Below are positions 21,607-43,572 of a stretch of DNA of 43,572 nucleotides, one piece after another; position 1 is the stretch's first letter; every line of letters begins with the position of its first letter. A model generated the notes under the pieces. That model worked only from the letters and a program-made list of their open reading frames with translations. It was not told the origin of the DNA and did not search any database. Source of the stretch: Trueperaceae bacterium (GTDB lineage: Bacteria; Deinococcota; Deinococci; Deinococcales; Trueperaceae); contig JBBDRK010000031.1 in NCBI GenBank assembly GCA_040905465.1, positions 1 through 43,572 of the forward strand, given 5' to 3'. A program made the translations under genes and the position numbers.

Positions 21607-21640
21607 GGCCCAGCTCCCCTTAGTGCAGGCCCAGCTCCCC
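21607..21640. repeat. 13-bp direct repeat straddling a stop codon
   Basis: GGCCCAGCTCCCC at 21607-21619 and 21628-21640. Confidence 0.65.
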
Positions 21641-22468
21641 CAATATGTCGTTGCCGATCAGTGCCTCGATGTCCTCGCGGCTGAACGACGGGAACGGCAT
21701 GTGGCGTGCATAGCCCAGCAGCCGCTCGAGCCCGTCTACGGTCTCGTCCGCCGTGGTGACGGGAAAATCGGTGCCGAACACCAGCTTGTTCCACACTCCG
21801 TACTCCTTCGCCAGGGTAAGCGAGCCGTACAGCTGCCAGGGCCGGTAGAACAGCGCCGAGATGTCGGCGTACACATGGGGATGCTTCCGTACCACGGCGA
21901 TCGTCTCGGCCTCCCAGGGATGGCCCAGGTGCGCAATCAGTATGCGGAGCTCGGGGTACGCAAGAGCGATCTCCTCGATCTGCTGCGGATGCGCCCATTT
22001 GAGCGGCGCAGTTCGCGGGAACGTGGTCCCGTGATGGGTCAGAATCGGCAGCCCGTGGTCCTCGCAGTAGCGGTAGATGCCCAGCATGCGGGCATCCAGC
22101 GGCTCGTAGGCCTGGTAGATCGGACTGGTCTTGAGGCCGCGAAGGCCCAGCTCGCGGTGCGCGCGCCGCAGCTGGGGCAGGGCGTTGCCGTCGTGGGGAT
22201 CCACCGACGCGAAGCCGATGAACTTTTGGGGGTCGGTAGCGACGTACTCGGCGACATACTCGTTGGGCACGTCGACACCCAGGTGAAGGCTGCGGAAGGC
22301 AAGCACGATCGCCCTGGAAACGTTGGCCATTGCCGCTCCGTGGGCCGAAAAGCTGGTCGCGAGAGTCGCGGCACCGGCGCCGCGCATTCGTTCGGCTTCC
22401 GCGAGAATCGGCTCGCCCCACTGTTCGGCTGTACCTATGTGAGTGTGATAGTCGATGACGGGCTGCAT
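21620..22468 (-). CDS. Amidohydrolase family protein (Amidohydro_2), close paralogue of 20659..21492
   Basis: IDYHTH, LRGLKTSPIYQ, THHGTTFP, AHLGHPWEAETI, FGTDFP. Confidence 0.88.
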   Translation of the reverse strand: MQPVIDYHTHIGTAEQWGEPILAEAERMRGAGAATLATSFSAHGAAMANVSRAIVLAFRSLHLGVDVPNEYVAEYVATDPQKFIGFASVDPHDGNALPQLRRAHRELGLRGLKTSPIYQAYEPLDARMLGIYRYCEDHGLPILTHHGTTFPRTAPLKWAHPQQIEEIALAYPELRILIAHLGHPWEAETIAVVRKHPHVYADISALFYRPWQLYGSLTLAKEYGVWNKLVFGTDFPVTTADETVDGLERLLGYARHMPFPSFSREDIEALIGNDILGELGLH

Positions 22469-23583
22469 CAGGGCGTCCGGTAGTGCTCGACCTTGCCGTC
22501 GTCGAGCTCGACACCCAGGCCGGGCTTAAGGGAGGGGCGTGCCTCGCCGCCGGATATCGCCAGCGGCTCGGCCAGCAGGTCGCCTTCATAAAAGAACGGA
22601 CTGAGGATGTCGCAGGGGAACTCTTCCGCTCCGATGCCCACGGTCGCCATTGCCAGATGGATCATGGCCGCGCTGGCGACACCCATCTCGAGATTGCTGC
22701 CGACGGTGCAGGTGATACCGGCTGCCTCCGCCACCGCCGCAGTCTTGCGTGCGGCGCCGATCCCGCCGCCCTTGCCCACATAAACCGAGAGCACGTCCGC
22801 CGCCTCGGCTCGCACGATCGCCATGGCGTCCTGAAGGCTGTACACACTCTCGTCGGCCACGATCGGCAGGGCGGAACGGCGGCGCACGTCGGCCAGCCAG
22901 GAAACGTCAGCGGCCGGCACCGGCTGCTCCACGAAGAACAGGTCGAACTCTCGTAGTCGTTCGATCGTCGCGATTGCCACCCGCGGCATCCAGCCGCCGT
23001 TGGCATCGACCCCCAGTCGAACTGACGGACCGATCGCCTCACGCACCGCCCGTACCCGGGCTACGTCGGCGTCCGGCCCCAGGCCGACTTTGACCTTCAT
23101 CGCCTGGAAGCCCTGTGCCACCGCCCATAGGGCTATCTCGGCGGCCTGCTCGGGGGCGACACCCGATACCGAGAACTTCGTCGGCACGTAGTCGCGCACC
23201 GGCCCACCGAGCAGCCGGTATACCGGCAGTCCTACCGCCTTGCCGAGGATGTCCCACAGCGCCATCTCCAGACCAGACTTGGTGAAGGGATTGTTTGCGA
23301 CCGTTTTGCGAACGACCATGGTCAGACGCTCCACATGCGTCGGATCCTGCCCCAGCAGCTGCGGCTCGAAGTATTCCCGGATCAGGTGGGCCGCCGTCGT
23401 CTGGTCCTCACCGCTCCATCCCGGAGTGCAGGAAACCTCACCGAGGCCGACGATTCCCTCGTCGGTGTGCACTTTCAGGAGCAGGAAGGGCGAGACCTTG
23501 TGGGAGCCGCGGCCGCCTTTGATTGCCCGCTTGGGGTCGATGGGGATGCGTACGGGGACGGTTTCGATGCGGGTGATCTTCAT
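22468..23583 (-). CDS. Enolase superfamily, muconate cycloisomerase-like protein
   Basis: MKVKVG, DANGGW, VEQP, ADES; N-terminal capping domain. Confidence 0.88.
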   Translation of the reverse strand: MKITRIETVPVRIPIDPKRAIKGGRGSHKVSPFLLLKVHTDEGIVGLGEVSCTPGWSGEDQTTAAHLIREYFEPQLLGQDPTHVERLTMVVRKTVANNPFTKSGLEMALWDILGKAVGLPVYRLLGGPVRDYVPTKFSVSGVAPEQAAEIALWAVAQGFQAMKVKVGLGPDADVARVRAVREAIGPSVRLGVDANGGWMPRVAIATIERLREFDLFFVEQPVPAADVSWLADVRRRSALPIVADESVYSLQDAMAIVRAEAADVLSVYVGKGGGIGAARKTAAVAEAAGITCTVGSNLEMGVASAAMIHLAMATVGIGAEEFPCDILSPFFYEGDLLAEPLAISGGEARPSLKPGLGVELDDGKVEHYRTP

Positions 23584-23652
23584 TGCGCTCCTCGAATCGG
23601 TCGGGGACGAGATGCTGCTGCCCCCGGGCCGCCGTGTGGTCGGTGGGTGTGG

Positions 23653-24771
23653 TCAGTCGCACAGGGCGGCGAGTTGCTCCCGGTCGAGTGCGACTCCGAG
23701 CCCCGGCCCTTCCGGTACGGTCAAGCGCCAGCCCTCGACGGATAGTGGAGTCACCAGGGCACACTCGGTGTGGAACACCGGCCCGATAATGTCGGCCGCA
23801 TATCGTTCGACCATGATATTCGGTAACGCTGCGGTTACGTGAGCGTTGGCGGCCGAGGCGATGTCCCACTCCAGATTGCTCCCGATGGCGCAGTGGACGC
23901 CCGCCGCTTCGGCCATCGCCACTATCGCCATCGTTCCGAGAATTCCACCGTTCTTGCCGGGGTAGACGCTGATGATGTCCGCGGCGCGTTCCCGGATGCA
24001 GCGCCCGGCGTCCTGGGGCGTGAATACCGATTCATCGGCCATTACCGGCAGCACCGTGCGACGCCGCACCTCGGCGAGCCCTTCGAGGTCGAGGCGATGG
24101 ACGGGCTGCTCGACGAAGGCGACGTCGTACTCCTCGAGGCGCTGCGAGGCTCGAACCGCCTCGTTGACCGACCAGCCGCCGTTTGCGTCAACCGTCAGCC
24201 TCACGTCGGGGCCCACTGCCTCGCGTACCCGCCGCACCCTCTCCAGGTCGAAGGCAAGAGGATCGTGGCCGACCTTGAGCTTGATCGTTCGGCAGCCCTC
24301 GTCCACGATCCGCGTCGCCGCCGCGGCAGACTCCTCGGGCCCAACCGGCATTATCGGAAACCTGAGCGGAAGGGATGAAGAGCGAACGGTTCCCCCGAGA
24401 AGAGCGTAGAGGGGAGCCTCCAGGGTCTTGCCCAGGATGTCGAACAGCGCCATCTCGATTCCGGCCTTGACGAACGGGTTGGCGAACGTCCGCGCGATCT
24501 TCGACATGCAGAAACGTATTCGGCACGGGTCCTCGCCGACGAGCCGTTCGGCCAGGTGCCGATCGATCACCGCCTTGGACCCCAATTGAATCTCCCCGCT
24601 CCAGTCGGGGGAACCGTTGACCTCCCCGATACCCTCGATGCCCGCGTCTGTCGTGATGCGGATAATCAGCAGGTGAGACGTGAAGCGGAAGCCCTTCGGG
24701 TCGGCGACCGTTCCGACCTGCCTGTCCACACCTACACTCACCGGAATCGTCTCGATCGCCACAATTTTCAC
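23653..24771 (-). CDS. Enolase superfamily, muconate cycloisomerase-like protein
   Basis: IKLKVG, DANGGW, VEQP, ADES; GTG start after AGGAGG. Confidence 0.88.
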   Translation of the reverse strand: MKIVAIETIPVSVGVDRQVGTVADPKGFRFTSHLLIIRITTDAGIEGIGEVNGSPDWSGEIQLGSKAVIDRHLAERLVGEDPCRIRFCMSKIARTFANPFVKAGIEMALFDILGKTLEAPLYALLGGTVRSSSLPLRFPIMPVGPEESAAAATRIVDEGCRTIKLKVGHDPLAFDLERVRRVREAVGPDVRLTVDANGGWSVNEAVRASQRLEEYDVAFVEQPVHRLDLEGLAEVRRRTVLPVMADESVFTPQDAGRCIRERAADIISVYPGKNGGILGTMAIVAMAEAAGVHCAIGSNLEWDIASAANAHVTAALPNIMVERYAADIIGPVFHTECALVTPLSVEGWRLTVPEGPGLGVALDREQLAALCD

Positions 24772-24817
24772 GGAGTCCTCCTGTTCCATACGGGAGCGCC
24801 GGCCGTGGTGCCGGCGA

Positions 24818-25894
24818 TCATCGGCCCCACGCATCGTCCAACAGTCGCAGCCAGTTTCCATGCATCACCGCGCTGACGTCGGCGTCCGAGTAGCCGCGAG
24901 CCGCCAAAGCTCCGGAAACCGCCTGCAGGTCGGAAATCGTATCGATGTCCACCGGATAATCCTCCCTGGCCAGCGCCGCGGCCAGGTTGCTTCCGATTCC
25001 CACCTGGAGTGCGTTGCCGGCAAGCTGGCAGATGTGATCGATGTGGTCGATGAAGTCGGCGAGGCTGGCACGAGGCTCGTCGCTCCGACCCACCCGCCTG
25101 CCGGGACGAAGCTGCCAACCGGTCATCGAAACTCCCACTACGCCGTTACGCTCTACGATTGCGCTCAGCTGACGATCCGTGAGCAGACGCGGATGCGGTA
25201 TCAGGGACCGGCAGTTGCTGTGACTGGCGAGCACCGGGCCCGGAAAGAGCTGCAGGGCATCGTCGAACGTTCTGTCGGAGGCATGACTCAGGTCGAGCAC
25301 GACGCCGAGCCGGGCCATCATGGGCAACAGCCGGGCCCCCAGCGGGGTAATACCCACTGCGCTGCCGGCTCCGCCCGCGAATCGGCCCACGCCGTCGTGG
25401 CTGACGCTCGCAATGCGCACGCCGGCCGAATGCCACTCCTCTATCGATTCGGGCGTCAGCAGCGGGTCTGCGCCCTCCATTGCGATCACCAGCCCCAGGG
25501 GAGGTCCATCTCCGGCGATTTCGCCGCTGTCCCACTCCTCCCACTGCCGCATATGAGCGGTGAGGGACGCGTTGTCCTCCAGGATCCGAACGTGCCCCGC
25601 GCTTTCCAGTGCCCGGTAATAGGCCAGATGAGCTTGCGCGATTGCGTAGGCCTGCGTGGGAGATGCATAGTCGCGATGAGCAACGGCCTGCCCGGATGAG
25701 CGGGCAAATACTGTTGCGAACGACACTGCCACCTTGCCTCGCCGCATGTCGGGCAGGGCCACCGAACCTTGGGCCCTTCCCACTCCAGGAGTGCCCAGCT
25801 CGTTGCTGCGGATCGTGTGGGCGGAGGTCAGCAGGTCGCGGTTGAGTTGCAGGGCGTTCATGGCCAGATCGAGGTGGCCGTCCACGACTAGCAT
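24818..25894 (-). CDS. Membrane dipeptidase (M19) family protein, catalytic Asp motif degenerate
   Basis: VDGHLD, MEGAD, DLSH, ASHSN, but GSNLAAA where the family has GxDxDG. Confidence 0.85.
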   Translation of the reverse strand: MLVVDGHLDLAMNALQLNRDLLTSAHTIRSNELGTPGVGRAQGSVALPDMRRGKVAVSFATVFARSSGQAVAHRDYASPTQAYAIAQAHLAYYRALESAGHVRILEDNASLTAHMRQWEEWDSGEIAGDGPPLGLVIAMEGADPLLTPESIEEWHSAGVRIASVSHDGVGRFAGGAGSAVGITPLGARLLPMMARLGVVLDLSHASDRTFDDALQLFPGPVLASHSNCRSLIPHPRLLTDRQLSAIVERNGVVGVSMTGWQLRPGRRVGRSDEPRASLADFIDHIDHICQLAGNALQVGIGSNLAAALAREDYPVDIDTISDLQAVSGALAARGYSDADVSAVMHGNWLRLLDDAWGR

Positions 25895-27009
25895 CAGCCG
25901 TCCACCTGGCGGGCAGCCGCGGGGCTGCTCCAGGCGCCGCGAAGGCAGCGGAGCCAGTTGCCGTGCATGACGTTGTCGACGTCCCCGGCCGAGAATCCCC
26001 GTTCCTGCAGCAATCGGGGCAGCGACTGCAGGTCGGCGATAGTGTCGAGATCGCGAGGGAACTCGTCGCGGCCCACGCCGCCGTCGAGGTCGGTGCCGAT
26101 CGCCACATGCAGGGCGTCGCCGGCGACGCTGCATGCGTGCTCGATGTGATCTACAACGGCGCGCATGGTCACGGCTCCGTTGTGCCTGGCGCCGACCACC
26201 CAGTCTGCAACCAGGTCGGAGCATCCCAGCAGCACGCCGACAACACCTCCGCGCTCCACAACAGCGGCGATCTGGGAGTCGCCGAACTGCCGCTGATTCG
26301 GCACCAGTGTCCGGCAGTTGCTGTGGCTGGCCAGCACCGGGCCCTCGAAGCGCTCCAGCGCCTCCCAGAACGAGGCATCAGAGAGGTGCGTGAGGTCCAG
26401 GATGAAACCCAGTCGGTCCATCTCCGCCAGCAGCTCCCGGCCCATCGGCGTCAGTCCCTGCTCACTACCGGTGCCGCCCGCATAGCGCCCGCTGCCGAAG
26501 TGCGCGGGTCCGATTATCCGCAGGCCTTCGTCCCACCACACTTCGAGGCGGTCGGGCGCGAGAACCGGATCGGCGCTTTCCATCAGCACGACGAAGCCGA
26601 GCGGGGGCATGTCCGCGTGGGCGGGCACGCCGTCAGCCAGTTGCTCCCACTGGTGCCAGGCAAATATGTGGTGGTCGAGCTGCTGACGGTCGGTTATCAA
26701 CCGGGCGTGACCCTCCGCCTCCAGCGCCCGGTAGTAGGCGAGGTGGCCGTGCGCGGAGGCGTCGGCCTGTACCGCGGAGGCGAAGTCCATGTGGGGGGCG
26801 ACGCAGCCGGTCGAGCGGGCGGTCAGCACCGCGAACGACAGTGCTACCCGGCCCTGCCGCATCTCCGGCAACGCCACCGTTCCCTGCGCCATTCCCTTGC
26901 CGACGCGGCCGAACTCGGCTATGCGGGTCTCGTACGCCGAAACCGTAAGGTCGCGGTTGCCCTGGAGGGCGTTGAGGGCGAGATCCAGATGACCGTCAAC
27001 GATGATCAT
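25894..27009 (-). CDS. Membrane dipeptidase (M19) family protein
   Basis: VDGHLD, MESAD, DLTH, ASHSN, GTDLDGG, HGNWLR. Confidence 0.88.
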   Translation of the reverse strand: MIIVDGHLDLALNALQGNRDLTVSAYETRIAEFGRVGKGMAQGTVALPEMRQGRVALSFAVLTARSTGCVAPHMDFASAVQADASAHGHLAYYRALEAEGHARLITDRQQLDHHIFAWHQWEQLADGVPAHADMPPLGFVVLMESADPVLAPDRLEVWWDEGLRIIGPAHFGSGRYAGGTGSEQGLTPMGRELLAEMDRLGFILDLTHLSDASFWEALERFEGPVLASHSNCRTLVPNQRQFGDSQIAAVVERGGVVGVLLGCSDLVADWVVGARHNGAVTMRAVVDHIEHACSVAGDALHVAIGTDLDGGVGRDEFPRDLDTIADLQSLPRLLQERGFSAGDVDNVMHGNWLRCLRGAWSSPAAARQVDG

Positions 27010-27036
27010 TGAGTAGCCACCATACAACAATTAAAC

Positions 27037-27066
27037 TTGAAATATCATATTTCATCAGGCTATGAT
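27037..27066. promoter_or_regulatory. Divergent promoter region with palindromic operator (unit 2, site 1)
   Basis: TGAAATAT-C-ATATTTCA (27038-27054); TTGAAA-18 bp-TATGAT rightward promoter. Confidence 0.75.
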
Positions 27067-27111: not shown

Positions 27112-28002
27112 ATGATCGTTGACTGTCATACTCACCTGATGTGGTACCCGGACCACCTGGAAGATCGTTATGTGGATGAGGCGCTTCAGTCGAAGCTGGT
27201 GAAGTTGAAACGTTCGGGTGGTGAAGCCTACGCTGGCAGGCTCGACCGGCATTCCTACGACTCGGTTCCGGAAGAGCACTGGAAGGTATCGGCCAGTGCC
27301 GACAAGGTGGTGGTATTCGGATTGCAGGCCAAGGCCTGCGGGGTGTGGGTGCCGAACGAACTCATAGCAGATTATGTGCGGCAGCACCCGGAGAAGCTCG
27401 AAGGTTGGGCGAGCGTGGACCCGAACGAGCCCGACTGTGTCGAGCAGCTCGAGCACTGCGTGAACGAACTCGGCCTGCGAGGCCTGAAGCTCGGCCCTGT
27501 CTACCAACACTTCGACCCGCAGGACCGCAAGCACTGGCCGCTGTTCGAGAAGGCCCAGGAGTTGGACCTGCCGATCATGTGGCATCAGGGAACGACGTTC
27601 CCGTCACGTGCAAAACTCAAGTGGGCACACCCGCTCCAACTGGAAGACATCGCGATGGAATTCCCGGACCTGCGAATGATCATCGCGCATCTCGGCCATC
27701 CCTGGGAGGTCGATACCATCGCGCTCATCCGCAAGTGTCCCAACCTCTACACCGACATCAGCGCGGTTCACTATCGTCCCTGGCGATATTGGCAGTCGAT
27801 GATCGCGGCCCTGGAGTACGGGGTGGACCACAAGATCCTTCTGGCGTCCGACTTTCCGTCAGGAACCATCGACAACGTAATCAGCGGCCTGAGGCGCGTC
27901 AACGACGTGGTAGCCGGAACCAACCTTCCGACCGTGCCGATCGAGGTTCAGGACAGCATCATCTTCGAGAATTGGAAGAAGTTCTTTCCGCTGTGGGCTT
28001 AG
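27112..28002 (+). CDS. Amidohydrolase family protein (Amidohydro_2), third paralogue
   Basis: VDCHTH, WHQGTTFP, AHLGHPWE, ASDFP; RBS GGAG. Confidence 0.88.
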   Translation: MIVDCHTHLMWYPDHLEDRYVDEALQSKLVKLKRSGGEAYAGRLDRHSYDSVPEEHWKVSASADKVVVFGLQAKACGVWVPNELIADYVRQHPEKLEGWASVDPNEPDCVEQLEHCVNELGLRGLKLGPVYQHFDPQDRKHWPLFEKAQELDLPIMWHQGTTFPSRAKLKWAHPLQLEDIAMEFPDLRMIIAHLGHPWEVDTIALIRKCPNLYTDISAVHYRPWRYWQSMIAALEYGVDHKILLASDFPSGTIDNVISGLRRVNDVVAGTNLPTVPIEVQDSIIFENWKKFFPLWA

Positions 28003-28105: not shown

Positions 28106-28900
28106 GTGGGCGAAGTGAGATCGGTCTGTTATCGGGAACTGACTCGCGAAGAGATCGGTGAGATCGCCCCGCGTGCCACCGCCGTCTTGCCGGTTGCGGC
28201 CATCGAGCAACATGGTCCGCATCTGCCGGTATGGGTGGACGCACTCGTGGCTGAGCGCCTGGCACTTGCCGCCGGTGAGAGGATCGCGGATTCTGCCCCG
28301 GTCGTCATCTGCCCAACCGTGTCGTTCGGCGCTTCCCACCATCACCTGGTCTTCCCGGGGGCGCTGTCGCTTTCCCGAGACACGCTACTGCGCGTTCTGG
28401 CCGATCTAACCGACTCGCTCGTGTCGAGCGGATTTCGAAGCATATTCATACTGAACTGTCACGGCGGCAACGAAGAGGTGGTCCGCATGGCGGCGCGCGA
28501 GCTGGTTCTGCGCCACAGCCTTGCCGTCGGCGCGGGTTCGTACTGGACCATCGCCTGGGAATCGCTGATCGACGGCGGCGCCGGCGACGTCGGCCGGGTG
28601 CCCGGTCACGCCGGCGGCTTCGAGACATCGCTGATGCTGGCGCTGGAGCCGGAGTTGGTGCGAAGGGAGCGCCTGCCTTCATCGCACGGGGGCGTGGTCA
28701 GCGGGCCGCCGGTCGAGCCGACCGGTCTGCCGCTGACCCTTCATTCCGGCAGCTGGAAAGCTGCCGACGGCTACAGCGACGACGCGTCGCGGGCATCGGG
28801 CGAGCACGGCGAGCGTTTCTTCGAGGGGATCGTCAACCGCCTGGCCGACCACCTGCTGCGGTTCCACCGTCGGGCGCTGGGTGAAGCGGATGTGCAGTAG
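28106..28900 (+). CDS. Creatininase / MftE family amidohydrolase
   Basis: EQHGPHLP..D, SHHH, NCHGGN, GHAGGFETS. Confidence 0.9.
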   Translation: MGEVRSVCYRELTREEIGEIAPRATAVLPVAAIEQHGPHLPVWVDALVAERLALAAGERIADSAPVVICPTVSFGASHHHLVFPGALSLSRDTLLRVLADLTDSLVSSGFRSIFILNCHGGNEEVVRMAARELVLRHSLAVGAGSYWTIAWESLIDGGAGDVGRVPGHAGGFETSLMLALEPELVRRERLPSSHGGVVSGPPVEPTGLPLTLHSGSWKAADGYSDDASRASGEHGERFFEGIVNRLADHLLRFHRRALGEADVQ

Positions 28901-29948: not shown

Positions 29949-30431
29949 ATGCCGCAGAAGAGACGCCGTATCCGCCTGACGTTCGTTGCCACCGGAGAAT
30001 CGGTGATCGCCGAACTGCTCGATGACGAAGCCCCCGCCACCTGTGAGTTGGTATGGAACATGCTTCCGCTGGAGCACGATCTCTATCACGGACGCTTCTC
30101 CGGATCCGAGGTATTCGTCCTCCTCGACGACGCCCCGGAAGTACCGCCCGAGCAGCGCTGCCACATGCCGTTGCCGGGCGAGATCCTGTACTGGCGTGAC
30201 GAAGGAACGGCGGTCACCTCCGGTGGCCGGCCCGTTGCCGAGATCGTTATGGCGTTCGGACGGGCGGTGCGGCTAGGCGGGCCCGAAGGCATGCCGAGCT
30301 ACGGCAATCTCTTTGCCCGGGTTCCCGGCGACTGGAAGTACGACTGGACGGAGTTCGCCGAAGCCTGCCGGCGCGTCCGCACCGGAGGACTCACTCCCCT
30401 GCGCGTGGAACGCCTGGAAGATGGCGAGTGA
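29949..30431 (+). CDS. DUF3830 family (cyclophilin-like fold) protein
   Basis: AELLDDEAPATC...LP, HGRFSGSE, PGEILY, GNLFA. Confidence 0.8.
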   Translation: MPQKRRRIRLTFVATGESVIAELLDDEAPATCELVWNMLPLEHDLYHGRFSGSEVFVLLDDAPEVPPEQRCHMPLPGEILYWRDEGTAVTSGGRPVAEIVMAFGRAVRLGGPEGMPSYGNLFARVPGDWKYDWTEFAEACRRVRTGGLTPLRVERLEDGE

Positions 30432-36225: not shown

Positions 36226-36261
36226 TTGACAGCTATTTTCGATTTGCGATATGATATACCA
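36226..36261 (+). promoter_or_regulatory. Sigma70-like promoter with overlapping operator (unit 2, site 2)
   Basis: TTGACA (36226)-18 bp-TATGAT (36250); TGCGATATGATATACCA at 36245-36261. Confidence 0.75.
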
Positions 36262-37882: not shown

Positions 37883-37920
37883 TCAAGTAAACGCTTGTTC
37901 GGGGAGACGAGGCCGATGAC

Positions 37921-38874
37921 ATGAGTGGTATCGCCCGCTACGCCATCGTGCGACTCGTCTCCCTCATTCCCGTCCTCTTTATCGTGGCGCTGGTGGCATT
38001 CGCACTGCTGCGCCTCATGCCGGGAGACCCGGCAACCGCAATGTTGCCCGTCGATGCACCGCTCTGGCAGATCGAGATGCTTCGCACGCAACTTGCGCTC
38101 GATCAACCCCTGCCCATCCAGTTCTACAGGTTCATCACGCGGCTGGCCAGCGGTGACCTGGGAGCCTCGCTGTTCTTCCGCCTTCCCGTTATCGAGCTGA
38201 TAGCCCTTCGTTTCGAGTCGACACTGATACTTGCGCTGACCTCACTGGCACTGGCCATGGCAGTGGGCATTCCGATCGGCGTATGGGCCGCCGATCGCCG
38301 CGGCACCCTCCTCGACCAGTCGCTCATGGCCACCTCGCTCATCGGCGTATCGGTACCGAACTTCTGGCTCGGGCTGATGCTGATACTGGCGTTCGCGGTC
38401 GAGCGTCGCTGGTTCCCGGTCACCGGCTGGGTTTCCATAACCGATGACCCGGTGCAGACAATGCGATTCCTGGTGCTACCCACCATCGCTCTCGGGATGT
38501 CGGTGGCCGCCAGCATCGCCCGGATGTCCCGCTCCACCATGCTCGAGGTGCTGTCTCAAGATTACGTTCGGACCGGCCGCGCCAAAGGTGTCGCCCATCG
38601 CTCACTGTTGTACAAGCACTCGCTGCGCAATGCGATGATTCCGCTGATGGCAGCTATCGGCGTCAGCTTTTCGAGCCTTCTGGGAGGAGCGGTCGTCACG
38701 GAAACGGTGTTCAACATTCCCGGCCTCGGGTCGATGCTGGTGGACTCCGTCGCCCGACGCGACTTTCCAGTACTCCAGGCGCTTCTCCTACTGTTCGCGG
38801 CGACCAACGTCGTCGTCCACCTGTTTGTAGACCTGACCTACGTTCTATTCGATCCGCGGATCCAGTACGGATGA
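37921..38874 (+). CDS. Peptide/nickel-type ABC transporter permease (DppB-like)
   Basis: LMPGDP, GDLGASL, QDYVRTGRAKG, LGGAVVTETVF. Confidence 0.9.
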   Translation: MSGIARYAIVRLVSLIPVLFIVALVAFALLRLMPGDPATAMLPVDAPLWQIEMLRTQLALDQPLPIQFYRFITRLASGDLGASLFFRLPVIELIALRFESTLILALTSLALAMAVGIPIGVWAADRRGTLLDQSLMATSLIGVSVPNFWLGLMLILAFAVERRWFPVTGWVSITDDPVQTMRFLVLPTIALGMSVAASIARMSRSTMLEVLSQDYVRTGRAKGVAHRSLLYKHSLRNAMIPLMAAIGVSFSSLLGGAVVTETVFNIPGLGSMLVDSVARRDFPVLQALLLLFAATNVVVHLFVDLTYVLFDPRIQYG

Positions 38875-38905
38875 CGCTCCATCGGCGAGCCGGGGAGGCG
38901 GTACG

Positions 38906-39796
38906 ATGAATCCGGCGCTGCAGGGGCCGAAGCCGAGTTCGGTTGCACGAGCGGGACGTCGGGCACTGAGTCGTCTGTGGCGGGCGATGTACCGCAATCC
39001 GCTGATCGTAGCGTGTGTGCTCGTACTGGCGGCGATCATGCTGGCGGCGGTGTTCGCTCCGTTGCTGACTGAATACGAACCCAACGAGATCAACGTGCGC
39101 GACGCCTATGCCGTACCAGGAGGCGAGCACCTGCTCGGCACCGACGATCTTGGCCGCGACCTCTACAGCCGCATCCTCTACGGCGGGCGCGTCTCGCTCA
39201 TGATCGCCTTCGGCTCGGCGCTGGGTGCCGGGATCATGGGCATGATCGTCGGCCTACTCGCCGGCTACTTCAGGCGCCTCGACTCCCCGCTGATGCTTCT
39301 CATGGATGGGATGATGGCGTTCCCCAGCCTCGTTCTGGCGCTGGTAGTGGTAGCGCTGCTGGGACCGAACCAGTTCAACATCCTGCTCGCCCTGATACTG
39401 GTATTCGGGCCACCCATCGCTCGTGTGGTACGCAGTTCGGTGCTGGTGCTTCGCGAGCTGGCCTTCATCGAAGCCGCTCACGCAACCGCTATCCCGGCGC
39501 GGCGGATAATAATCCGCCACCTGATGCCGAACGCAATCGCCCCCTGGTTGGTCCAGGTCACTTTGATCCTCGCTTACGCCCTGCTCACCGAGGCCGGACT
39601 CAGCTTTCTCGGTGTCGGCGGGTCCACCTCCAATCCCAGCTGGGGCGGCATCATCTCCGAGGGGCGTCTCGTTCTCTCACGTGCCCCCTGGCTCACCCTC
39701 TACCCCGGTCTCACCATCGCTATCACCGTCCTGGCGGTAAACCTGGTGGCCGATGCACTGCGGGACCGACTCGATCCCCGGCTACGGGGGAGTTGA
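38906..39796 (+). CDS. Peptide/nickel-type ABC transporter permease (DppC-like)
   Basis: HLLGTDDLGRDLYSRILYGGRVSL, EAGLSFLG, DALRDRLDPR. Confidence 0.9.
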   Translation: MNPALQGPKPSSVARAGRRALSRLWRAMYRNPLIVACVLVLAAIMLAAVFAPLLTEYEPNEINVRDAYAVPGGEHLLGTDDLGRDLYSRILYGGRVSLMIAFGSALGAGIMGMIVGLLAGYFRRLDSPLMLLMDGMMAFPSLVLALVVVALLGPNQFNILLALILVFGPPIARVVRSSVLVLRELAFIEAAHATAIPARRIIIRHLMPNAIAPWLVQVTLILAYALLTEAGLSFLGVGGSTSNPSWGGIISEGRLVLSRAPWLTLYPGLTIAITVLAVNLVADALRDRLDPRLRGS

Positions 39797-39865: not shown

Positions 39866-41464
39866 ATGTTGATCGGTTATGTAAGTGATGAACGCTATTT
39901 GGCGCTGCACGACGTGAACGTAGAGTTCCTGCGCGGCGACGAGTCGGTCGCACGGGTTCGCTCCTCCCCCAGGGGCGCGATCTACGCCGATCTGCCCAAC
40001 GGTGACTACACCGTCGAGTTGGCTCGCGACGGAAATGGCGCAAAGAGCGTGTCCCTGAGCCTACCGCTGCCCGAGGCACACCAGTTCCGCCTTCTCTCCG
40101 ATAGCCTCTACGGCTACATGTGGCCCAAATGGGTCCGCTCCGGTGAAAGCGCCGAGTATTGCATTCACGCCAGTGAAGAGTGCCGGGTGAGCCTTTGGCG
40201 TTACGGACTCGAGAAGGAGTTCGTTCGCCTCATCAATTGGCACGGCGAGCATGGCCCACGGGCAAACGTGCAGGTCGTTCCCGACGGCGACTATACCCAG
40301 GCTGGTGTGCAGTGGAATCGGGTCGGCTACGACTCAAAACATCATTCCCTCCGCATAACCGCACCCGAACGATCCGGCCTCTACTACATCCATCTCGAGG
40401 GACGGTCCGGAGCATTTACCGCCCTCCCCTGGGTGGTGGCGCCGCGCTCGCCGCAGGCTCGCATCGCGGTGTTGGCCGCCACCAACACCTGGAATGCCTA
40501 CAACAACTTCGGCGGCCGCAGCAACTATATCCACCCAGACCGGCTGCCCGACCGGCCTACCATGAACGCCCGCCTCGAGCTCGACAGATACCGTCCCGGC
40601 TACAACGCTTACGGCCATCCTAACGATTCGTACTTGCCGTTGTCCTTCATGCGCCCAGAGCCCGGCAACTTCGTGCCTTTGGAGGACCGGATAACGGACG
40701 CGATCCGTGGCCGGAACGAGTGCGCCCTCTCGCCCGCCGAATGGCGGTTGCTCGGATGGCTCGAGCGCGAGGGTTTCGACTATGACCTGTGGGCTGAGGC
40801 GCATCTGCACCATGGTCAGCTGGATCTGGATGAATACCAGATTCTGATGATAAGCGTGCACCCGGAGTACTGGTCGGCGGAGATGTACCGGCAGGTGAAG
40901 AATTGGGTGATAGAGCGCGGCGGTCGGCTGATGTACCTGGGCGGGAACGGAATCGACGGGCCGGTGGAGTTCCTGGACGAGTCGACCCTCCGATTCCTGA
41001 ACCATGTTCCTGAGGACGCTTCGTTGCAACCGGGCGAGATCTTTCGAAATCGCTTCACGCAGGCGGTGGAGTCACCGGCGCAGCTGCTGGGCGTCGTTTA
41101 CGATGACCGCGGAATAATGACGGCGGCTCCTTACCGCGTGCTGGACGATCAGCACTGGGCCTTCAGCGGCAGCGGTCTCCACAACGGCGACCTGTTCGGA
41201 GTCACCTCGCTCGGTGAGCGCATCAGTGGAGGCGCATCCGGCCATGAGACGGACAAGGTCTCCCCGCTCTTCTCTCCTGCCGGGGTGGAGGTTCTCGCCA
41301 AAGGCACGAATCCCGACGATGGCGGGGCGGACATGATCTGCTACCGGTCCGCGTCCGGCGGCCGGGTTTTCTCTACGGGTTCGATTACCTACGTGGGGTC
41401 GTTGTTGGTCGACGACCCGCTATCGAAGGTAACGTCGAACGTGCTCAACAGGTTCCTCGACTGA
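39866..41464 (+). CDS. N,N-dimethylformamidase large (beta) subunit family protein
   Basis: SGLYY, TWNAYN, GRSNY, WLEREG, HPEYWS, YLGGN, GHETD, VFSTGSI. Confidence 0.8.
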   Translation: MLIGYVSDERYLALHDVNVEFLRGDESVARVRSSPRGAIYADLPNGDYTVELARDGNGAKSVSLSLPLPEAHQFRLLSDSLYGYMWPKWVRSGESAEYCIHASEECRVSLWRYGLEKEFVRLINWHGEHGPRANVQVVPDGDYTQAGVQWNRVGYDSKHHSLRITAPERSGLYYIHLEGRSGAFTALPWVVAPRSPQARIAVLAATNTWNAYNNFGGRSNYIHPDRLPDRPTMNARLELDRYRPGYNAYGHPNDSYLPLSFMRPEPGNFVPLEDRITDAIRGRNECALSPAEWRLLGWLEREGFDYDLWAEAHLHHGQLDLDEYQILMISVHPEYWSAEMYRQVKNWVIERGGRLMYLGGNGIDGPVEFLDESTLRFLNHVPEDASLQPGEIFRNRFTQAVESPAQLLGVVYDDRGIMTAAPYRVLDDQHWAFSGSGLHNGDLFGVTSLGERISGGASGHETDKVSPLFSPAGVEVLAKGTNPDDGGADMICYRSASGGRVFSTGSITYVGSLLVDDPLSKVTSNVLNRFLD

Positions 41465-41582: not shown

Positions 41583-42512
41583 TCAGCCGGGAAGGCCGGT
41601 CGAGCCAGGAAGGACGTACAGACCCGGAAGGCGCGGCATCTCCAGGCGGAGTGTCATCTCCATGTTCCCGCAGGACTGCCCGATCCGCAGGTCTCCTGTG
41701 GCTCCGATCAGCATGAGCGCTTCGACCGGGCTGATCCGCATGCCGGCCTCCATCAGACGGAGCATATCGTCGACCGCCATACGGCGGGCCTCGCTGAAGT
41801 CGCGGCTCCAGCCGGTCGTCACGATCCGGTCGGCCGTCTCCAGGCGTGGACCCGGTAATGCGACGTTCTTATGTAGTTCGACCGCCACGGTGACATCGGC
41901 CGCAGTCTCCACGCCTCCGCAGCTGAGCTCGCCGTCACCCATTGCGGAGTGAACGTCGCCCAGGTAAAGCATTGCCCCTGCCACCTGGACGGGCAGGTAT
42001 ATACGCGTGCCGGTGGTAACCAGGATGCAGTCCAGGTTTCCTCCATTTACGCCTATGCTGCCCGACCTGGGGGAGTCGGCGTGGGCCACTCCGATCTCTC
42101 CGATCATCGGCCGTAACGGAAAGCTGATGCCGTTCTTCCAGTGAGCCAAGCCGTCGTGATTGGCGATGATCCCGATCTTGCGATCGGCGATTCGCCCATC
42201 GGGCACCACGTAGCCGAGGTCCGCCGCCGCCATGTATCCACGAGGGGCGAGCTCGATGCCCTGCACCTCGACCGACAGTACGTCTCCAGGCTCCGCCCCG
42301 GCGATTTCGATCGGTCCTGTGAGGGCGTTGGACCTACCGCCGGGCGGAGGCGGATATTCCTGCAGGGTGCCTGGCTCGCCTTTCAGGATGGCGCCCGATC
42401 TCGGATCCCTCGTCTCCACTACGACGATCTGTCCCGGCCGGATGGAGGCTCGCGGCGAGGTGGTGGGCGAGTAAGCGAACTCGCCGATGGAACGATCTAT
42501 ATGCGTCGACAT
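41583..42512 (-). CDS. Acetamidase/formamidase family protein
   Basis: LTGPIEIAGAEPGDVL, RPMIG, GGNLD, YLPVQV, GDVHSAMGDGE, GGVET. Confidence 0.9.
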   Translation of the reverse strand: MSTHIDRSIGEFAYSPTTSPRASIRPGQIVVVETRDPRSGAILKGEPGTLQEYPPPPGGRSNALTGPIEIAGAEPGDVLSVEVQGIELAPRGYMAAADLGYVVPDGRIADRKIGIIANHDGLAHWKNGISFPLRPMIGEIGVAHADSPRSGSIGVNGGNLDCILVTTGTRIYLPVQVAGAMLYLGDVHSAMGDGELSCGGVETAADVTVAVELHKNVALPGPRLETADRIVTTGWSRDFSEARRMAVDDMLRLMEAGMRISPVEALMLIGATGDLRIGQSCGNMEMTLRLEMPRLPGLYVLPGSTGLPG

Positions 42513-43210
42513 CAGCTTCGCTCACCTTTGACCTTCGTGCGCCGGGCAAGGAACTTCGCCGTTTTCAGGATGTGTTCGCGCATCGTCGCATCCGCCTTCT
42601 CCGGATCACCTGCTGCAATGGCTTCGAACACGGCTCTGTGTTCGCTGAAGCCTTCGACCATCTGCGTATGGTCGGACAGCGCCTGGGGCCGGGTAATCTC
42701 GTCGTAGCGGCGCATCACGGCCGACATCTGCTTTAGCGGATTGTTGCGGGCGACGTCGATAATTAGTCGATGGAACCTCTCGTTGGCGCGAACGGCCTCT
42801 GCAACATCCCGCCGGCTGGTGGACTCCTCCATCACCTCGAGCTGGGCGCGCAACTCGGAGAGGTCCTCGCTTGTTGCCTTGTTGGCTGCGAGGTAGGCCG
42901 CCGTTCCTTCGAGCGCCGCTCGGATGAGGCCGTATTCGGCGGTGATCGAGCCAATGCCCTCCGCTACGACGCTCCCCTTCATGGGCGCGGAGTCGACCAA
43001 ACCCTCCAGCGCGAGTCGTTGCAGAGCCGCCTTGACAGGCGTGGTACTAACGCCCATGAGCTTTGCCAACTCGCGCTCCTTGAGAGGCTCACCGGGAGCG
43101 AATACGCCCTCGAGGATTGCCTCTCTGAGCGTGTCCGCCGTCTTGTCGGTGATCGAACGGTGTTCGGTTCGCAACTGGCTGAGGTTCTTTGGTTTGGAAT
43201 TGGTCTGCAT
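42512..43210 (-). CDS. GntR family transcriptional regulator (FCD domain)
   Basis: PGEPLKERELAKLMGVSTTPVKAAL; NERFH, EHRAV, MREHI. Confidence 0.9.
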   Translation of the reverse strand: MQTNSKPKNLSQLRTEHRSITDKTADTLREAILEGVFAPGEPLKERELAKLMGVSTTPVKAALQRLALEGLVDSAPMKGSVVAEGIGSITAEYGLIRAALEGTAAYLAANKATSEDLSELRAQLEVMEESTSRRDVAEAVRANERFHRLIIDVARNNPLKQMSAVMRRYDEITRPQALSDHTQMVEGFSEHRAVFEAIAAGDPEKADATMREHILKTAKFLARRTKVKGERS

Positions 43211-43295
43211 CTAACCGGGTACCCCCGTCTCGTGGGATGGCCGAAGGCGGCGAGCGAAGCGCTCGAGACCGGGGGAGAGCCGAGGCCTTGCCATA

Positions 43296-43312
43296 TGCAA
43301 TATGATATCAGA
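43296..43312. promoter_or_regulatory. Operator copy between divergent gntR and malate synthase (unit 2, site 3)
   Basis: TGCAATATGATATCAGA, matching the sites at 27038 and 36245. Confidence 0.7.
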
Positions 43313-43392
43313 GGTATCAGCGCGGGCGCGCCACCATTCCTTGTTTCTGCGGCCGTGTGAGCGATCAGGCTTGCTGAACGGAGAGTTGAACG

Positions 43393-43572
43393 GTGACTGC
43401 ACCGCACGCCCACCCCAGGATCGTCAGCCAAGAGCTTACCCCGTCGTTCAGGGAAATACTCACTTCGGACGCGTTGAACTTCGTTGCAGGTTTGCAGCGA
43501 GAATTCGATCAGCGCCGTCGAGAGTTGTTGGCCGAGCGGGAGGTGCGTCAGGCGGCGATAGCTAAAGGTGAG
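43393..43572 (+). CDS. aceB: Malate synthase A, N-terminal fragment (runs off window)
   Basis: Not in ORF track. GTG 7 nt after GGAGAG; translates MTAPHAHPRIVSQELTPSFREILTSDALNFVAGLQREFDQRRRELLAEREVRQAAIAKGE, matching the ILT.EAL.F...L.R.F..RR.ELL.R..RQ..I..G pattern of malate synthase A. Confidence 0.8.
   Translation, partial: MTAPHAHPRIVSQELTPSFREILTSDALNFVAGLQREFDQRRRELLAEREVRQAAIAKGE

Follow-up and report, generated by a model that had tools for sequence, protein, structure and literature searches.

Which compounds does a sediment bacterium degrade with a block of about 27 genes, mostly for hydrolases, and does this block form a single catabolic system? The block lies in the window analyzed here, a 43,572-nucleotide stretch of a Trueperaceae MAG with a 3.53-Mb genome. 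A first-pass annotation had described a cluster at 21620..43572 and read it as a hydrolytic, oxygenase-free pathway, an interpretation that our results partly support. We searched Pfam with the 30 candidate ORFs in the range 21401-43572. Twenty ORFs matched a family, and every family named in that annotation was found in its place; the remaining 10 had no match and were overlapping ORFs in alternative frames. Neighboring genes share 1 to 14 nt, from start to stop, at no fewer than eight junctions (22468, 25894, 30428-30431, 31471-31474, 33543-33546, 34571/34583-34586, 35364-35377, and 42512), in agreement with the translational coupling previously noted. Likewise, Pfam and NCBIfam detected no oxygenase or other redox enzyme in the regulon of the regulator GntR1. 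The features are listed in Table 1.

Table 1. Genes and regulatory sites of the hydrolase-rich block and its upstream operon
Feature	Position	Strand	Match and remarks
Probable GntR0 operator, TTCGATATATCGAA	14193..14206		Perfect palindrome; promoter of upstream GntR operon
GntR0, GntR/FCD regulator of upstream operon	14235..14945	+	Pfam GntR+FCD
Amidohydrolase/deacetylase-type metallohydrolase (PRK09237)	14942..16147	+	NCBIfam NF006689, 424.7 bits vs cut-off 371
Diverged argininosuccinate-lyase paralogue (C-N lyase, fumarase/aspartase superfamily)	16232..17707	+	TIGR00838, 337 bits
Succinate dehydrogenase/fumarate reductase-like complex	17708..20649	+	Pfam, NCBIfam; Fe-S subunit 17708-18562, membrane subunit about 18543-18899, flavoprotein about 18910-20649
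Amidohydro_2 copy 0	20659..21492	+	Pfam, 137.8 bits; last gene of upstream operon
Amidohydro_2 copy a	21620..22468	-	Pfam, 116.7 bits; start overlaps MLEb stop
MLEb, atypical MLE-subgroup enolase-superfamily enzyme	22468..23583	-	Pfam MR_MLE; PDB comparison
MLEa, MLEb paralogue (44% identity)	23653..24789	-	Pfam MR_MLE
M19 dipeptidase b	24818..25894	-	Pfam; Asn replaces Asp of GSDLDGG motif
M19 dipeptidase a	25894..27009	-	Pfam Peptidase_M19
Operator 1, TGAAATATGATATTTCA	27038..27054		Perfect 8+1+8 palindrome; between divergent operons
Amidohydro_2 copy b (AH2b)	27112..28002	+	Pfam; very conserved uncharacterised family
Creatininase-family metal hydrolase	28106..28900	+	Pfam, 201 bits
DHDPS-family Schiff-base lyase	28937..29863	+	Pfam, NCBIfam, PDB
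DUF3830 protein	29949..30431	+	Pfam; anchor of conserved association
M19 dipeptidase c	30461..31474	+	Pfam; alternative start 30428 or 30434 possible
DUF3604 protein	31471..33546	+	Pfam; coupled to M19 genes on both sides
M19 dipeptidase d	33543..34586	+	Pfam
Amidohydro_2 copy c	34583..35377	+	Pfam; SNWP where other copies have SDFP/TDYP
Amidohydro_2 copy d	35364..36161	+	Pfam
Operator 2, TGCGATATGATATACCA	36245..36261		Overlaps -10 of promoter-like site TTGACA-18-TATGAT
Family-5 substrate-binding protein (SBP_bac_5)	36335-37882	+	Pfam
Two importer permeases	37921-38874, 38906-39796	+	Pfam; importer span 36335..39796
DMFA2_C-domain amidase (DMFase-large-subunit-like)	39866..41464	+	Pfam
Short FmdA_AmdA-family amidase, 309 aa	41583..42512	-	Pfam
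GntR1, GntR/FCD regulator	42512..43210	-	Pfam GntR+FCD, NCBIfam
Operator 3, TGCAATATGATATCAGA	43296..43312		Between gntR1 and malate synthase gene
Malate synthase N-terminus, first 60 codons	43393..43572	+	MS_N, 56.5 bits; gene cut by contig end

The content of the cluster was as first described, but its limits were not: it continues past 21620 into a second GntR operon (14235-21492) that contains a fifth Amidohydro_2 gene, and we place the probable start of the island near 14.1 kb. The regulator of this operon, GntR0, shares 32% identity with GntR1, and the exact TTCGATATATCGAA occurs once in the genome. Orthologues of its metallohydrolase, which we take to belong to the cog3964 group, directly adjoin DUF3830 (63-64% identity) in another Trueperaceae genome (G021) and in a Gemmatimonadota genome (G364), and SdhA-like genes (51-55% identity) adjoin DUF3830 at three loci (L034, L056, and L093). 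The housekeeping argininosuccinate lyase, encoded on contig C11, scores 658 bits against TIGR00838. By sequence comparison, the block is rare in the phylum and appears to be accessory in its host. Across the phylum, a search of 364 genomes detected DUF3830 in 2; a full-length DUF3604 orthologue was found in only 1 of 40 relatives (G021, 53% identity), and any DUF3604 match in 5 of 41 genomes, the host (G000) included. Two congeners showed no counterpart of the DNA at 14.1-20 kb and 23.6-43.6 kb bar short matches to paralogous permeases.

A 17-bp palindrome, TGnnATATGATATnnCA, sits in three promoter regions, confirming that these share one operator. Its exact 9-bp core occurs three times in the 3.53-Mb genome, always within the cluster, and the reversed control was absent. 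Searching for ATATGATAT with at most one mismatch returned six matches, that is, three sites on both strands (1.13 expected; 0 of 100 shuffles reached 6), and the extended palindrome TGNNATATGATATNNCA returned seven (1.66 expected; 0 of 100 shuffles reached 7). The operator overlaps the region's two best promoter-like sites, and operator 1 overlaps TTGAAA-18-TATGAT. Since neither the operator nor a GntR1 orthologue was found in related clusters, the GntR1 regulon is local to the host genome.

The homologues are syntenic elsewhere, G021 and G364 carrying shuffled orthologous sets. A 27-kb cluster of G021 encodes the FmdA-like protein (64% identity), DUF3604 (48-53%), M19 c (78%), two DMFA2 proteins (61% and 73%), the binding protein and permeases (60-70%), DHDPS (50%), creatininase (65%), AH2b (77%), the cog3964 hydrolase (64%), and DUF3830 (80%). 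In G364, the same families are spread over three loci in other orders, including a TonB receptor-DMFA2-DHDPS-M19 operon with a 68% orthologue of M19 a; M19 c has an 83% orthologue in Gemmatimonadota. Both genomes additionally contain S15 peptidases, and G021 has hydantoinase A/B. The same partners emerged from two independent anchors, one being DUF3830 in genomes and the other the DMFase-like protein in metagenomes. MLEb was found at ≥50% identity in 39 of 80 DUF3830-anchored loci and AH2b in 6 of 80; the 80 DMFA2-anchored loci contained genes resembling MLE (19), creatininase (17), AH2b (12), and DHDPS (9), as well as DUF3830 (4). S15 peptidase, penicillin amidase, ceramidase-like, SMP30, and SDR genes were also present in both sets. 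AH2b has 1160 homologues at E<=1e-30, and its orthologues (73-82%) adjoin DUF3830 or DMFA2. The core enzymes recur in many uncultured bacteria but are not known to have been characterized, and comparisons with the literature, NCBIfam, and PDB retrieved no characterized pathway with this gene set, as first suspected. Gene content, coupling, the operator, and this recurrence are what we observed; we regard the right-hand cluster as a real, probably co-regulated catabolic cluster.

We then considered what the individual hydrolases may do. The Amidohydro_2 proteins had been taken for C-N hydrolases; however, the top PDB match of a profile of six copies was an uncharacterized protein, most other characterized matches were decarboxylases, a hydratase, and a meta-cleavage hydrolase, and none of the matches listed was an amide hydrolase by name. 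The proposed release of formate fared no better. Against the NCBIfam formamidase model, whose cut-off is 500 bits, the FmdA-like protein reached 64 bits, its best solved relatives being only "predicted" acetamidases, and the DMFase-like protein was closer to N-acetyl-(R)-beta-phenylalanine acylase (8huy, 66 bits) than to DMFase (44 bits over about 80 residues; 532 versus 775 aa). The creatininase-family protein fell below the NCBIfam creatininase cut-off (101.7 versus 235 bits) and that of MftE. All four M19 copies retain the H-x-D, E, H, and H residues. A family-5 importer is encoded as previously described, except that the cluster supplies the binding protein and two permeases without ATPase genes; all eight oligo_HPY matches of the genome lie on other contigs.

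The structures nearest to the MLE proteins are L-Ala-D/L-Glu epimerase and racemase types. YkfB (1jpm) was the best solved match of MLEa (191 bits; 184 bits with MLEb), and MLEb matched 2p88, listed as an MR/MLE family protein and presumably the B. cereus N-succinyl-Arg/Lys racemase, at about 205 bits. In both paralogues the second catalytic Lys is replaced by Tyr and the DxD motif, a mark of dipeptide epimerases, is missing, so they are not ordinary epimerases or racemases. The DHDPS-like protein has an invariant Lys173 in an IKD motif.

We tentatively favor, at somewhat less than an even chance, a system, encoded by an accessory, horizontally acquired island (14.1-43.3 kb) with two GntR/FCD regulons, that takes up and hydrolyzes unusual peptides or N-acyl amino-acid derivatives and continues with elimination, hydration, and aldol cleavage. 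What we infer is the chemistry at each step, the function of GntR1 as a repressor, and the class of substrate. GntR1, the presumed repressor, probably binds the palindrome overlapping the promoters of four transcription units, which a ligand at its FCD domain would release. The peptide/opine-type binding protein and permeases would import a small amide-linked compound using ATPases encoded elsewhere. Cytoplasmic metal-dependent hydrolases (the DMFase-like acylase, four M19 proteins, short FmdA-like amidase, creatininase-type enzyme, DUF3604, and the cog3964 hydrolase of the neighboring operon) may then cut amide or cyclic-amide bonds. The released acid moiety would enter a conserved core of the two MLE-type enzymes, Amidohydro_2 as a hydratase or lactone/ring hydrolase, the DHDPS-type lyase, whose step is suggested by the conserved Lys, and DUF3830, yielding pyruvate-type compounds. 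The most likely substrates are D-, beta-, or iso-linked, or cyclized, small peptides or N-acyl derivatives. This peptide/N-acyl character is suggested by the family-5 binding protein, the catalytic residues kept in the M19 copies, the acylase-like DMFA2 protein, the structures nearest to the MLE proteins, and the S15 peptidases of G021 and G364, while the many paralogues suggest a family of related compounds rather than a single molecule. Several points count against it: the atypical MLE active sites; the characterized Amidohydro_2 relatives, which are not amide hydrolases; the sugar-acid-like setting of the DUF3830-MLEb pair in Planctomycetota and Verrucomicrobiota (see below); the operator and GntR1, which have no counterpart in the related clusters; and the possibility that the dipeptidases and Amidohydro_2 proteins are a loose collection.

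Alternatively, the conserved enzymes of the core (MLEb, Amidohydro_2, DHDPS-like, creatininase-like, DUF3830) might make up a non-phosphorylative pathway for acid sugars or lactones, resembling the Weimberg or oxidative-uronate routes. The amidases would then only remove amino-acid or acyl groups from a conjugated sugar acid, such as an opine- or Amadori-like compound or an N-acyl amino-sugar acid. The oxidative uronate route combines an Amidohydro_2 lactone isomerase, an enolase-superfamily cycloisomerase, and KdgD, and opine binders such as AgaA (88 bits) are among the family-5 binding proteins. In Planctomycetota and Verrucomicrobiota, a recurring order, GGT-SMP30-SDR-ceramidase-like-DUF3830 / MLEb-creatininase-like-SSF-ALDH-HAD-GguC, places the DUF3830-MLEb pair with a GguC/AraD1 protein (424 bits versus a cut-off of 340) and an ALDH nearest to 2,5-dioxovalerate dehydrogenase, which resembles sugar-acid oxidation rather than peptide use; Bryobacterales loci additionally contain a PQQ dehydrogenase, a SelA-like PLP enzyme, and an RraA-like aldolase. 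However, Pfam detected neither a sugar dehydrogenase nor SMP30, ALDH, or GguC in either regulon, and the four M19 and the S15 peptidases suggest peptides. The best NCBIfam matches of the DHDPS-like protein are KdgD-type dehydratases, yet well short of their cut-offs (112 versus 278 and 107 versus 374 bits). MLEb is far under every acid-sugar dehydratase cut-off (NCBIfam), and 4ggb/4hpn, listed as "Putative uncharacterized protein" and which we take to be galactarolactone cycloisomerase, scored 108 bits against 205 for its top matches. We consider a sugar-acid route unlikely.

A route in which an N-rich heterocycle of the ureide, hydantoin, creatinine-like, or pyrimidine-like kind is opened hydrolytically and passes through carbamoyl or formyl intermediates to glyoxylate, used by the adjacent malate synthase, seems very unlikely to us. 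It would suit the cyclic-amidase families (creatininase, the DHOase-like cog3964 enzyme, and hydantoinase A/B in G021) and the position of gntR1 and the malate synthase gene on either side of operator 3. The host genome, 95% complete, has a second, full malate synthase on contig C17 and no detectable isocitrate lyase, which means that the enzyme must act on glyoxylate from some other source. The MS_N match places a malate synthase next to the cluster, as first reported, but only 60 of its codons lie on the contig and its membership in the system is uncertain. Neither the 160 related loci nor the G021 and G364 regions yielded a malate synthase, contrary to the proposed feeding of a C2 unit. Moreover, Pfam detected no purine or pyrimidine catabolic genes in the window, the formamidase and creatininase equivalog cut-offs were missed by wide margins, and four dipeptidases fit ring opening poorly. 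We hold it quite improbable that there is no single pathway, but a co-regulated toolbox of generalist scavenging enzymes, built by duplication and transfer, with each hydrolase acting on different peptides or amides and no common downstream route. The four dipeptidases and five Amidohydro_2 proteins could equally be such a loose collection, the two MLE proteins add to the paralogues, G000, G021, and G364 differ in gene order and content, and other phyla hold subsets only. Conversely, the non-hydrolase partners (MLEb, DHDPS-like, DUF3830) recur with hydrolases from both anchors, the 71-88% identity of MLEb and AH2b across phyla (for AH2b, the best 120 of 1160 homologues) suggests a defined shared substrate, and one operator with tight coupling suggests a single programme.

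Several known systems resemble parts of the island. N,N-dimethylformamide degradation (DmfA1A2) and formamidase FmdA share the DMFA2_C and FmdA_AmdA domains with it, but differ in protein length, matched region, and score. Creatinine/N-methylhydantoin and hydantoinase-type degradation has in common with it a creatininase-family enzyme and a DHOase-like amidohydrolase, to which the G021 cluster adds hydantoinase A/B, whereas the island falls short of the creatininase cut-off and has no creatinase, sarcosine oxidase, or carbamoylase. Non-phosphorylative acid-sugar routes (Weimberg; oxidative uronate Udh-Gli-Gci-KdgD) similarly combine Amidohydro_2, enolase-superfamily, and DHDPS-family enzymes, and in other phyla the DUF3830-MLEb pair sits with SDR, SMP30, GguC/AraD1, and ALDH, yet amidases and dipeptidases dominate the island, and all scores are far under equivalog cut-offs. 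N-succinyl/N-acyl amino-acid racemase systems also pair an MLE-type enzyme with an N-acyl amino-acid amidase (2p88 and 8huy comparisons); here, the similarity is remote, the second catalytic Lys is missing, and the island has no acyltransferase. Peptidoglycan-peptide recycling loci with L-Ala-D/L-Glu epimerase, such as B. subtilis ykfABCD and E. coli ycjG, have no counterpart of the many further hydrolase families, DUF3830, DUF3604, or the DHDPS-type lyase, and MLEa and MLEb differ from YkfB by Tyr at the position of catalytic Lys268 and the missing DxD motif; these loci and the island nonetheless share an MLE-subgroup enolase enzyme adjoining peptidases and a Dpp-type importer.

The host, a MAG of the Trueperaceae (Deinococcota; 3.53 Mb, 81 contigs, 95% complete), contributes one entire contig, C31, as the window. 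Pfam searches with 30 candidate ORFs between 21401 and 43572 gave a family match for 20 of them, and the remaining 10 were overlapping shadow ORFs without a match. All families named in the first-pass annotation were recovered by Pfam: four Amidohydro_2 and four M19 proteins, creatininase, DHDPS, DUF3830, DUF3604, two MR/MLE proteins, SBP_bac_5 with two permeases, DMFA2_C, FmdA_AmdA, and GntR with FCD. The final 60 codons of the window match the N-terminal domain of malate synthase. Inspection of start codons refined the gene model and bore out the translational coupling noted before, with stop/start overlaps at no fewer than eight junctions. The proposed family-5 (Dpp/Opp/Nik) ABC importer stood as regards its binding protein and two permeases but not as regards two ATPases in the same locus, since the ATPase genes (eight oligo_HPY matches) occur only on contigs C17, C36, C56, and C67, outside the cluster. 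Solved relatives of the binding protein score at most 125 bits and are too distant for its ligand to be named. The stretch 27000-36900, whole or in part, is present in five DNA rows from two studies, and no RNA data set covering it is listed. Only one run, from a sediment metagenome, covers the stretch almost completely, and it may represent the source sample.

Coordinates of operons, individual genes, and regulatory sites in the window
Feature	Coordinates	Strand
DsbA gene	13415-14002	
Palindrome of the upstream operon	14193-14206	
Upstream operon, second GntR/FCD	14235-21492	
GntR0, regulator of the upstream operon	14235-14945	plus
PRK09237-type (cog3964-type) amidohydrolase	14942-16147	plus
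Fifth Amidohydro_2 copy	20659-21492	
Operon M19a-M19b-MLEa-MLEb-AH2a	27009->21620	minus
M19b	24818-25894	minus
Promoter-like site TTGAAA-18-TATGAT	27037-27066	
Operator 1	27038-27054	
Operon AH2b-creatininase-DHDPS-DUF3830-M19c-DUF3604-M19d-AH2c-AH2d	27112->36161	plus
AH2c	34583-35377	plus
Promoter-like site TTGACA-18-TATGAT	36226-36255	
Operator 2	36245-36261	
Operon binding protein, two permeases, DMFase-like protein	36335->41464	plus
DMFase-like protein (DMFA2)	39866-41464	plus
Operon GntR1, FmdA-like protein	43210->41583	minus
GntR1, presumed regulator of the 22-kb cluster	42512-43210	minus
Operator 3	43296-43312	
Second malate synthase gene, rest of gene not assembled	43393-43572	

Three promoter regions have in common a 17-bp palindrome, TGnnATATGATATnnCA, which is a perfect 8+1+8 inverted repeat at operator 1. 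Its 9-bp core was matched six times (three sites, both strands), compared to an expectation of 1.13, and none of 100 shuffles gave as many. The whole genome contains three exact copies of this core, all within the cluster, and the reversed control gave none; the shared operator put forward in the first-pass annotation was thereby confirmed as three palindromes with a core exclusive to the cluster. The operator overlaps the two best promoter-like sites of the region, an overlap that is supportive only, since the total of promoter-like hits was not above that of the shuffles. The features of a GntR/FadR-type (FCD) regulon are present, namely, wHTH and FCD domains (Pfam) and a palindrome repeated at promoters. 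The simplest reading is a repressor that would occlude the promoters through predicted binding to the operator. The operator 9-mer was absent from the cluster of G021, another Trueperaceae genome, and among 96 loci it was found only in L001, the copy of the window, and in L057.

The 22-kb cluster first described is real, but the gene set probably reaches beyond the start given to it, into a second GntR/FCD operon upstream. This operon has its own palindrome, TTCGATATATCGAA, unique in the genome, and its regulator GntR0 shares just 32% identity with GntR1. It encodes the PRK09237-type amidohydrolase (424.7 bits, cut-off 371), an argininosuccinate-lyase homologue, a three-subunit succinate-dehydrogenase/fumarate-reductase-like complex, and the fifth Amidohydro_2 protein. 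The lyase homologue scores 337 bits with TIGR00838 (cut-off 279.5) and is probably a diverged paralogue, given that a housekeeping copy on contig C11 scores 658 bits. With this content, the operon may serve to cleave an N-(dicarboxyethyl)-type compound, with fumarate as a product. Orthologues of the PRK09237-type amidohydrolase directly adjoin DUF3830 in G021 and in the Gemmatimonadota genome G364, and three further loci have SdhA-like genes (51-55% identity) next to DUF3830. Thus, the upstream operon is probably part of the same system as the 22-kb cluster.

DNA searches of two congeners found counterparts of the window up to the DsbA gene. In the same congeners, the two later stretches searched, 14.1-20 kb and 23.6-43.6 kb, had no counterpart except short paralogous-permease matches. 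Of 364 genomes in the phylum, just two, the host and G021, gave a match to the DUF3830 protein. A full-length DUF3604 orthologue occurred in 1 of 40 relatives (G021, 53% identity), and any DUF3604 match in 5 of 41 genomes, the host included. Several proteins have their closest relatives in Gemmatimonadota (M19c, 83%; DUF3830, 78%; M19d, 73%), which points to inter-phylum transfer, and the contig from 14.1 kb onward appears to be an accessory island. Outside this part, positions 1-13200 carry a PD-(D/E)XK/NucS-like nuclease fragment, OpuAC- and SBP_3-type binding proteins, DUF72, a TauE permease, a PGA_cap (CapA-like) gene, a PIN-domain gene, two Gfo/Idh/MocA oxidoreductases, and a sugar-type ABC importer likewise devoid of an ATPase gene.

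Synteny in other genomes, suggested as a check when the cluster was first noted, was indeed found, with related gene sets in G021, in G364, and at DUF3830 and DMFA2 loci. In G021, a 27-kb cluster comprises most of these families (48-80% identity) along with an S15 peptidase, two hydantoinase A/B sets, and a SelA-like PLP enzyme, but no MLE genes. In G364, the same families are spread over three loci in other orders, one being a TonB receptor-DMFA2-DHDPS-M19a operon. We scanned one genome per species with a DUF3830 alignment and kept the best 80 of 99 relatives, all of them MAGs, from Bryobacterales and other Acidobacteriota, Planctomycetota, Verrucomicrobiota, Gemmatimonadota, Armatimonadota, and others. 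Among these best 80 of 99 loci, a homologue of MLEb at ≥50% identity was present in 39 and one of AH2b in 6; DMFA2, M19c, M19d, and cog3964 were each found in 2, SdhA in 3, and DUF3604 in 1, all of which are lower bounds because many contigs are short. Matches to the creatininase of the window at ≥30% identity occurred in at least 26 of the 80 loci, and the ASL-like protein, SdhC, M19b, AH2c, AH2d, GntR0, and GntR1 had none at that level.

Metagenome contigs were scanned independently with an alignment of DMFA2; around the 80 relatives kept out of 478, the commonest neighbours were MLE-like (19), creatininase-like (17), AH2b-like (12), DHDPS-like (9), and DUF3830 (4) genes. MLEb was found at 67-76% identity in ten of these 80 loci and AH2b at 73-79% in six. 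The DUF3830 and DMFA2 neighbourhoods alike contain S15 peptidase, penicillin amidase, ceramidase-like, SMP30, and SDR genes. Since both scans returned the same partners, they define a conserved core composed of the DMFase-like acylase, the DHDPS-like lyase, AH2b, the creatininase-like protein, MLEb, and DUF3830. To this core, the Trueperaceae and Gemmatimonadota versions typically add the M19 dipeptidases, DUF3604, cog3964, and the FmdA-like protein.

Some further features of the compared loci were recorded. In the single-contig genome G021, the binding-protein and first-permease orthologues (L011, 3527-5917) each appear split into two ORFs, which could reflect a frameshift or an assembly error, and the cluster edge (L010) carries a GH127 beta-L-arabinofuranosidase-family gene (693-2942) and a ComA (phosphosulfolactate synthase) family gene (8241-9032). 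In G364, a GH20 hexosaminidase, a BNR-repeat protein, and four tandem ADP-ribosylglycohydrolase-family genes (L018, 12666-20098) adjoin the DUF3830/M19 locus. Bryobacterales/Acidobacteriota (L021-L025; L020, L026, L028, L030, L031) show two further kinds of DUF3830 context, one with a SelA-like PLP enzyme, an RraA-like aldolase, MLE-like genes, a PQQ dehydrogenase, and cytochrome c and the other with two AXE1-family esterases and a TauE-type permease.

The binuclear-metal ligands of M19 enzymes are H-x-D, E, H, H, and the strand-8 Asp. All four M19 copies match PF01244 (176-286 bits, cut-off 26) and keep the H-x-D, E, H, H ligands, with H13, D15, E123, H190, and H211 invariant in seven sequences. 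M19b reads GSNLAAA where the other six aligned M19 proteins read GSDLDGG or GTDLDGG; having lost the late Asp to Asn, this copy may be inactive or altered. Bacterial M19 enzymes are reported to prefer L-Xaa-D-Xaa.

MLEa and MLEb are paralogues (44% identity) with MR_MLE_N and MR_MLE_C domains, a conserved K-x-K (K163, K165), and conserved metal ligands D193, E219, and D244. Among solved structures, they come closest to L-Ala-D/L-Glu epimerase, MLEs, and racemase-type proteins. In YkfB, Lys268 at the end of strand 6 is the second catalytic lysine; MLEa, MLEb, and four homologues have an invariant Tyr268 at this position ('SVYVGKGGG' versus 'NIKLMKAGG'). Also missing is the DxD motif after strand 8, which binds the dipeptide ammonium group in dipeptide epimerases (D-I-I in MLEa and D-I-L/I in the MLEb family, compared to D-F-D in YkfB). 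With both elements missing, a canonical dipeptide epimerase was rejected, and the two proteins are not ordinary two-base epimerases; judging from these residues, one-base elimination or cycloisomerisation is more likely. MLEb belongs to a large family that bears generic names only; 2966 homologues were found at E≤1e-40, of which the best 120 share 72-83% identity with it. Homologues 73% identical to MLEb are encoded by the cultured species Paenibacillus koleovorans and P. solisilvae.

The Amidohydro_2 proteins (PF04909) score 110-138 bits against a cut-off of 26.4 and keep the H-x-H, His, and His metal ligands, with D4, H6, H8, H158, and H193 invariant. The late metal/catalytic Asp is present in five of six sequences and replaced by Asn in AH2c (SNWP versus SDFP/TDYP). 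A profile of the six copies had the uncharacterised BB4693 as its top match, and characterised matches were mostly decarboxylases, the hydratase LigJ, and a meta-cleavage hydrolase. None of the matches listed is named as an amide hydrolase, which leaves the C-N hydrolase role given to these proteins in the first-pass annotation unsupported. For AH2b, 1160 homologues were found at E≤1e-30, of which the best 120 share 71-88% identity with it.

Several other enzymes could be placed at family level. The creatininase-like protein matches its Pfam family (201 bits) and falls below the cut-offs of TIGR04448 (101.7 versus 235) and MftE (111.9 versus 172). The DHDPS-like protein (PF00701, 80.8 versus 22.1) has the invariant Schiff-base Lys173 in an IKD motif and scores under both equivalog cut-offs (DapA, 49.9 versus 206; KdgD, 106.7 versus 374). 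For the DMFase-like protein, the match is confined to the C-terminal domain (PF20254, 207 bits), DMFase itself giving 44 bits over residues 289-369, and the nearest solved relative is an N-acetyl-(R)-beta-phenylalanine acylase. The FmdA-like protein reaches 64.3 bits with the equivalog NF045496 (cut-off 500), so that the earlier formamidase assignment does not hold; the solved formamidase 2wkn scores 55 bits, compared to 144 for a 'predicted acetamidase/formamidase'. On these scores, a true DMFase or formamidase was rejected. For DUF3604, no solved structure was matched by sequence at E≤0.01, and searches of the ESM Atlas, DUF3604 included, matched only DUF-named clusters.

From these data, we infer a mechanism in which a ligand would release GntR1 and the family-5 system, with ATPases supplied in trans, would import a small amide-linked compound. 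Cytoplasmic metal hydrolases would then cut amide and cyclic-amide bonds, and the released acid would be converted to pyruvate-type products by the MLE-type, Amidohydro_2, DHDPS-type lyase, and DUF3830 proteins. We favour unusual small peptides or N-acyl amino-acid derivatives as substrates because of the family to which the binding protein belongs, the presence of dipeptidases, the kinship to an acylase, and the repeated occurrence of S15, penicillin-amidase, ceramidase-like, and GGT genes nearby. Chief among the rivals is a route for sugar-acid conjugates, which draws on the Planctomycetota and Verrucomicrobiota, where the DUF3830-MLEb pair lies in a conserved cluster with SDR, SMP30, GguC/AraD1 (424 bits, cut-off 340), and aldehyde dehydrogenase genes. 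In L047, L053, L055, L064, L079, L094, and others, this conserved, uncharacterised arrangement is GGT-SMP30-SDR-ceramidase-like-DUF3830, convergent with MLEb-creatininase-like-SSF symporter-ALDH-HAD-GguC/AraD1.

A ureide- or hydantoin-type heterocycle is a possible substrate in view of the two different malate synthases of the genome, one of whose genes adjoins operator 3 and GntR1, and of the absence of an isocitrate lyase detectable at 95% completeness. However, neither at 160 other loci nor in the regions of G021 and G364 does the gene set come with a malate synthase, which also weakens the link to this enzyme drawn in the first-pass annotation. A purine/ureide pathway was rejected, the window being without such genes, as was a glyoxylate-shunt role for malate synthase, isocitrate lyase not having been found. 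The other malate synthase, on C17 (L220, 1129-3605), adjoins a 236-aa ORF that is GntR-like in appearance. Beyond the favoured peptide or N-acyl substrates, a bolder and rather unlikely proposal is that DUF3830, the Tyr-for-Lys MLE, AH2b-type Amidohydro_2, DMFase-like acylase, creatininase-like hydrolase, and DHDPS-like lyase form one widespread, entirely uncharacterised pathway (at least seven named lineages, hundreds of metagenome contigs) for abundant, overlooked environmental amides, e.g., diketopiperazines or other lactam- or lactone-capped amino-acid derivatives, with DUF3830 as a new enzyme and the MLE using new acid-base chemistry. Degradation of cyclic dipeptides (diketopiperazines) and of such capped derivatives is little known, according to a 2013 paper (PMC3852281).

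Our literature search found no paper mentioning DUF3830 and no description of this gene combination and, by title and abstract, nothing relevant on DUF3604 or cog3964. If our reading is right, the window holds a compact, regulator-tagged version of a recurring gene set without assigned function, spread over Acidobacteriota, Planctomycetota, Verrucomicrobiota, Gemmatimonadota, Armatimonadota, Chloroflexota-type MAGs, and Deinococcota. MLEb, AH2b, and the DMFase-like protein (478 confirmed metagenome stretches) represent highly conserved families that carry generic names only. The substrate, once found, would give a function to DUF3830 and probably to DUF3604, define a new enolase-superfamily subgroup, and reveal how one class of organic nitrogen is mineralised by bacteria of sediment and soil. 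For ligand screening, the predicted operator and its regulator offer a direct handle. The gene set is less a surprise than a good target for discovering functions. Its enzyme superfamilies and regulatory logic are familiar, but not the pathway or its substrate, the Tyr-variant MLE subgroup, or what DUF3830 and DUF3604 do.
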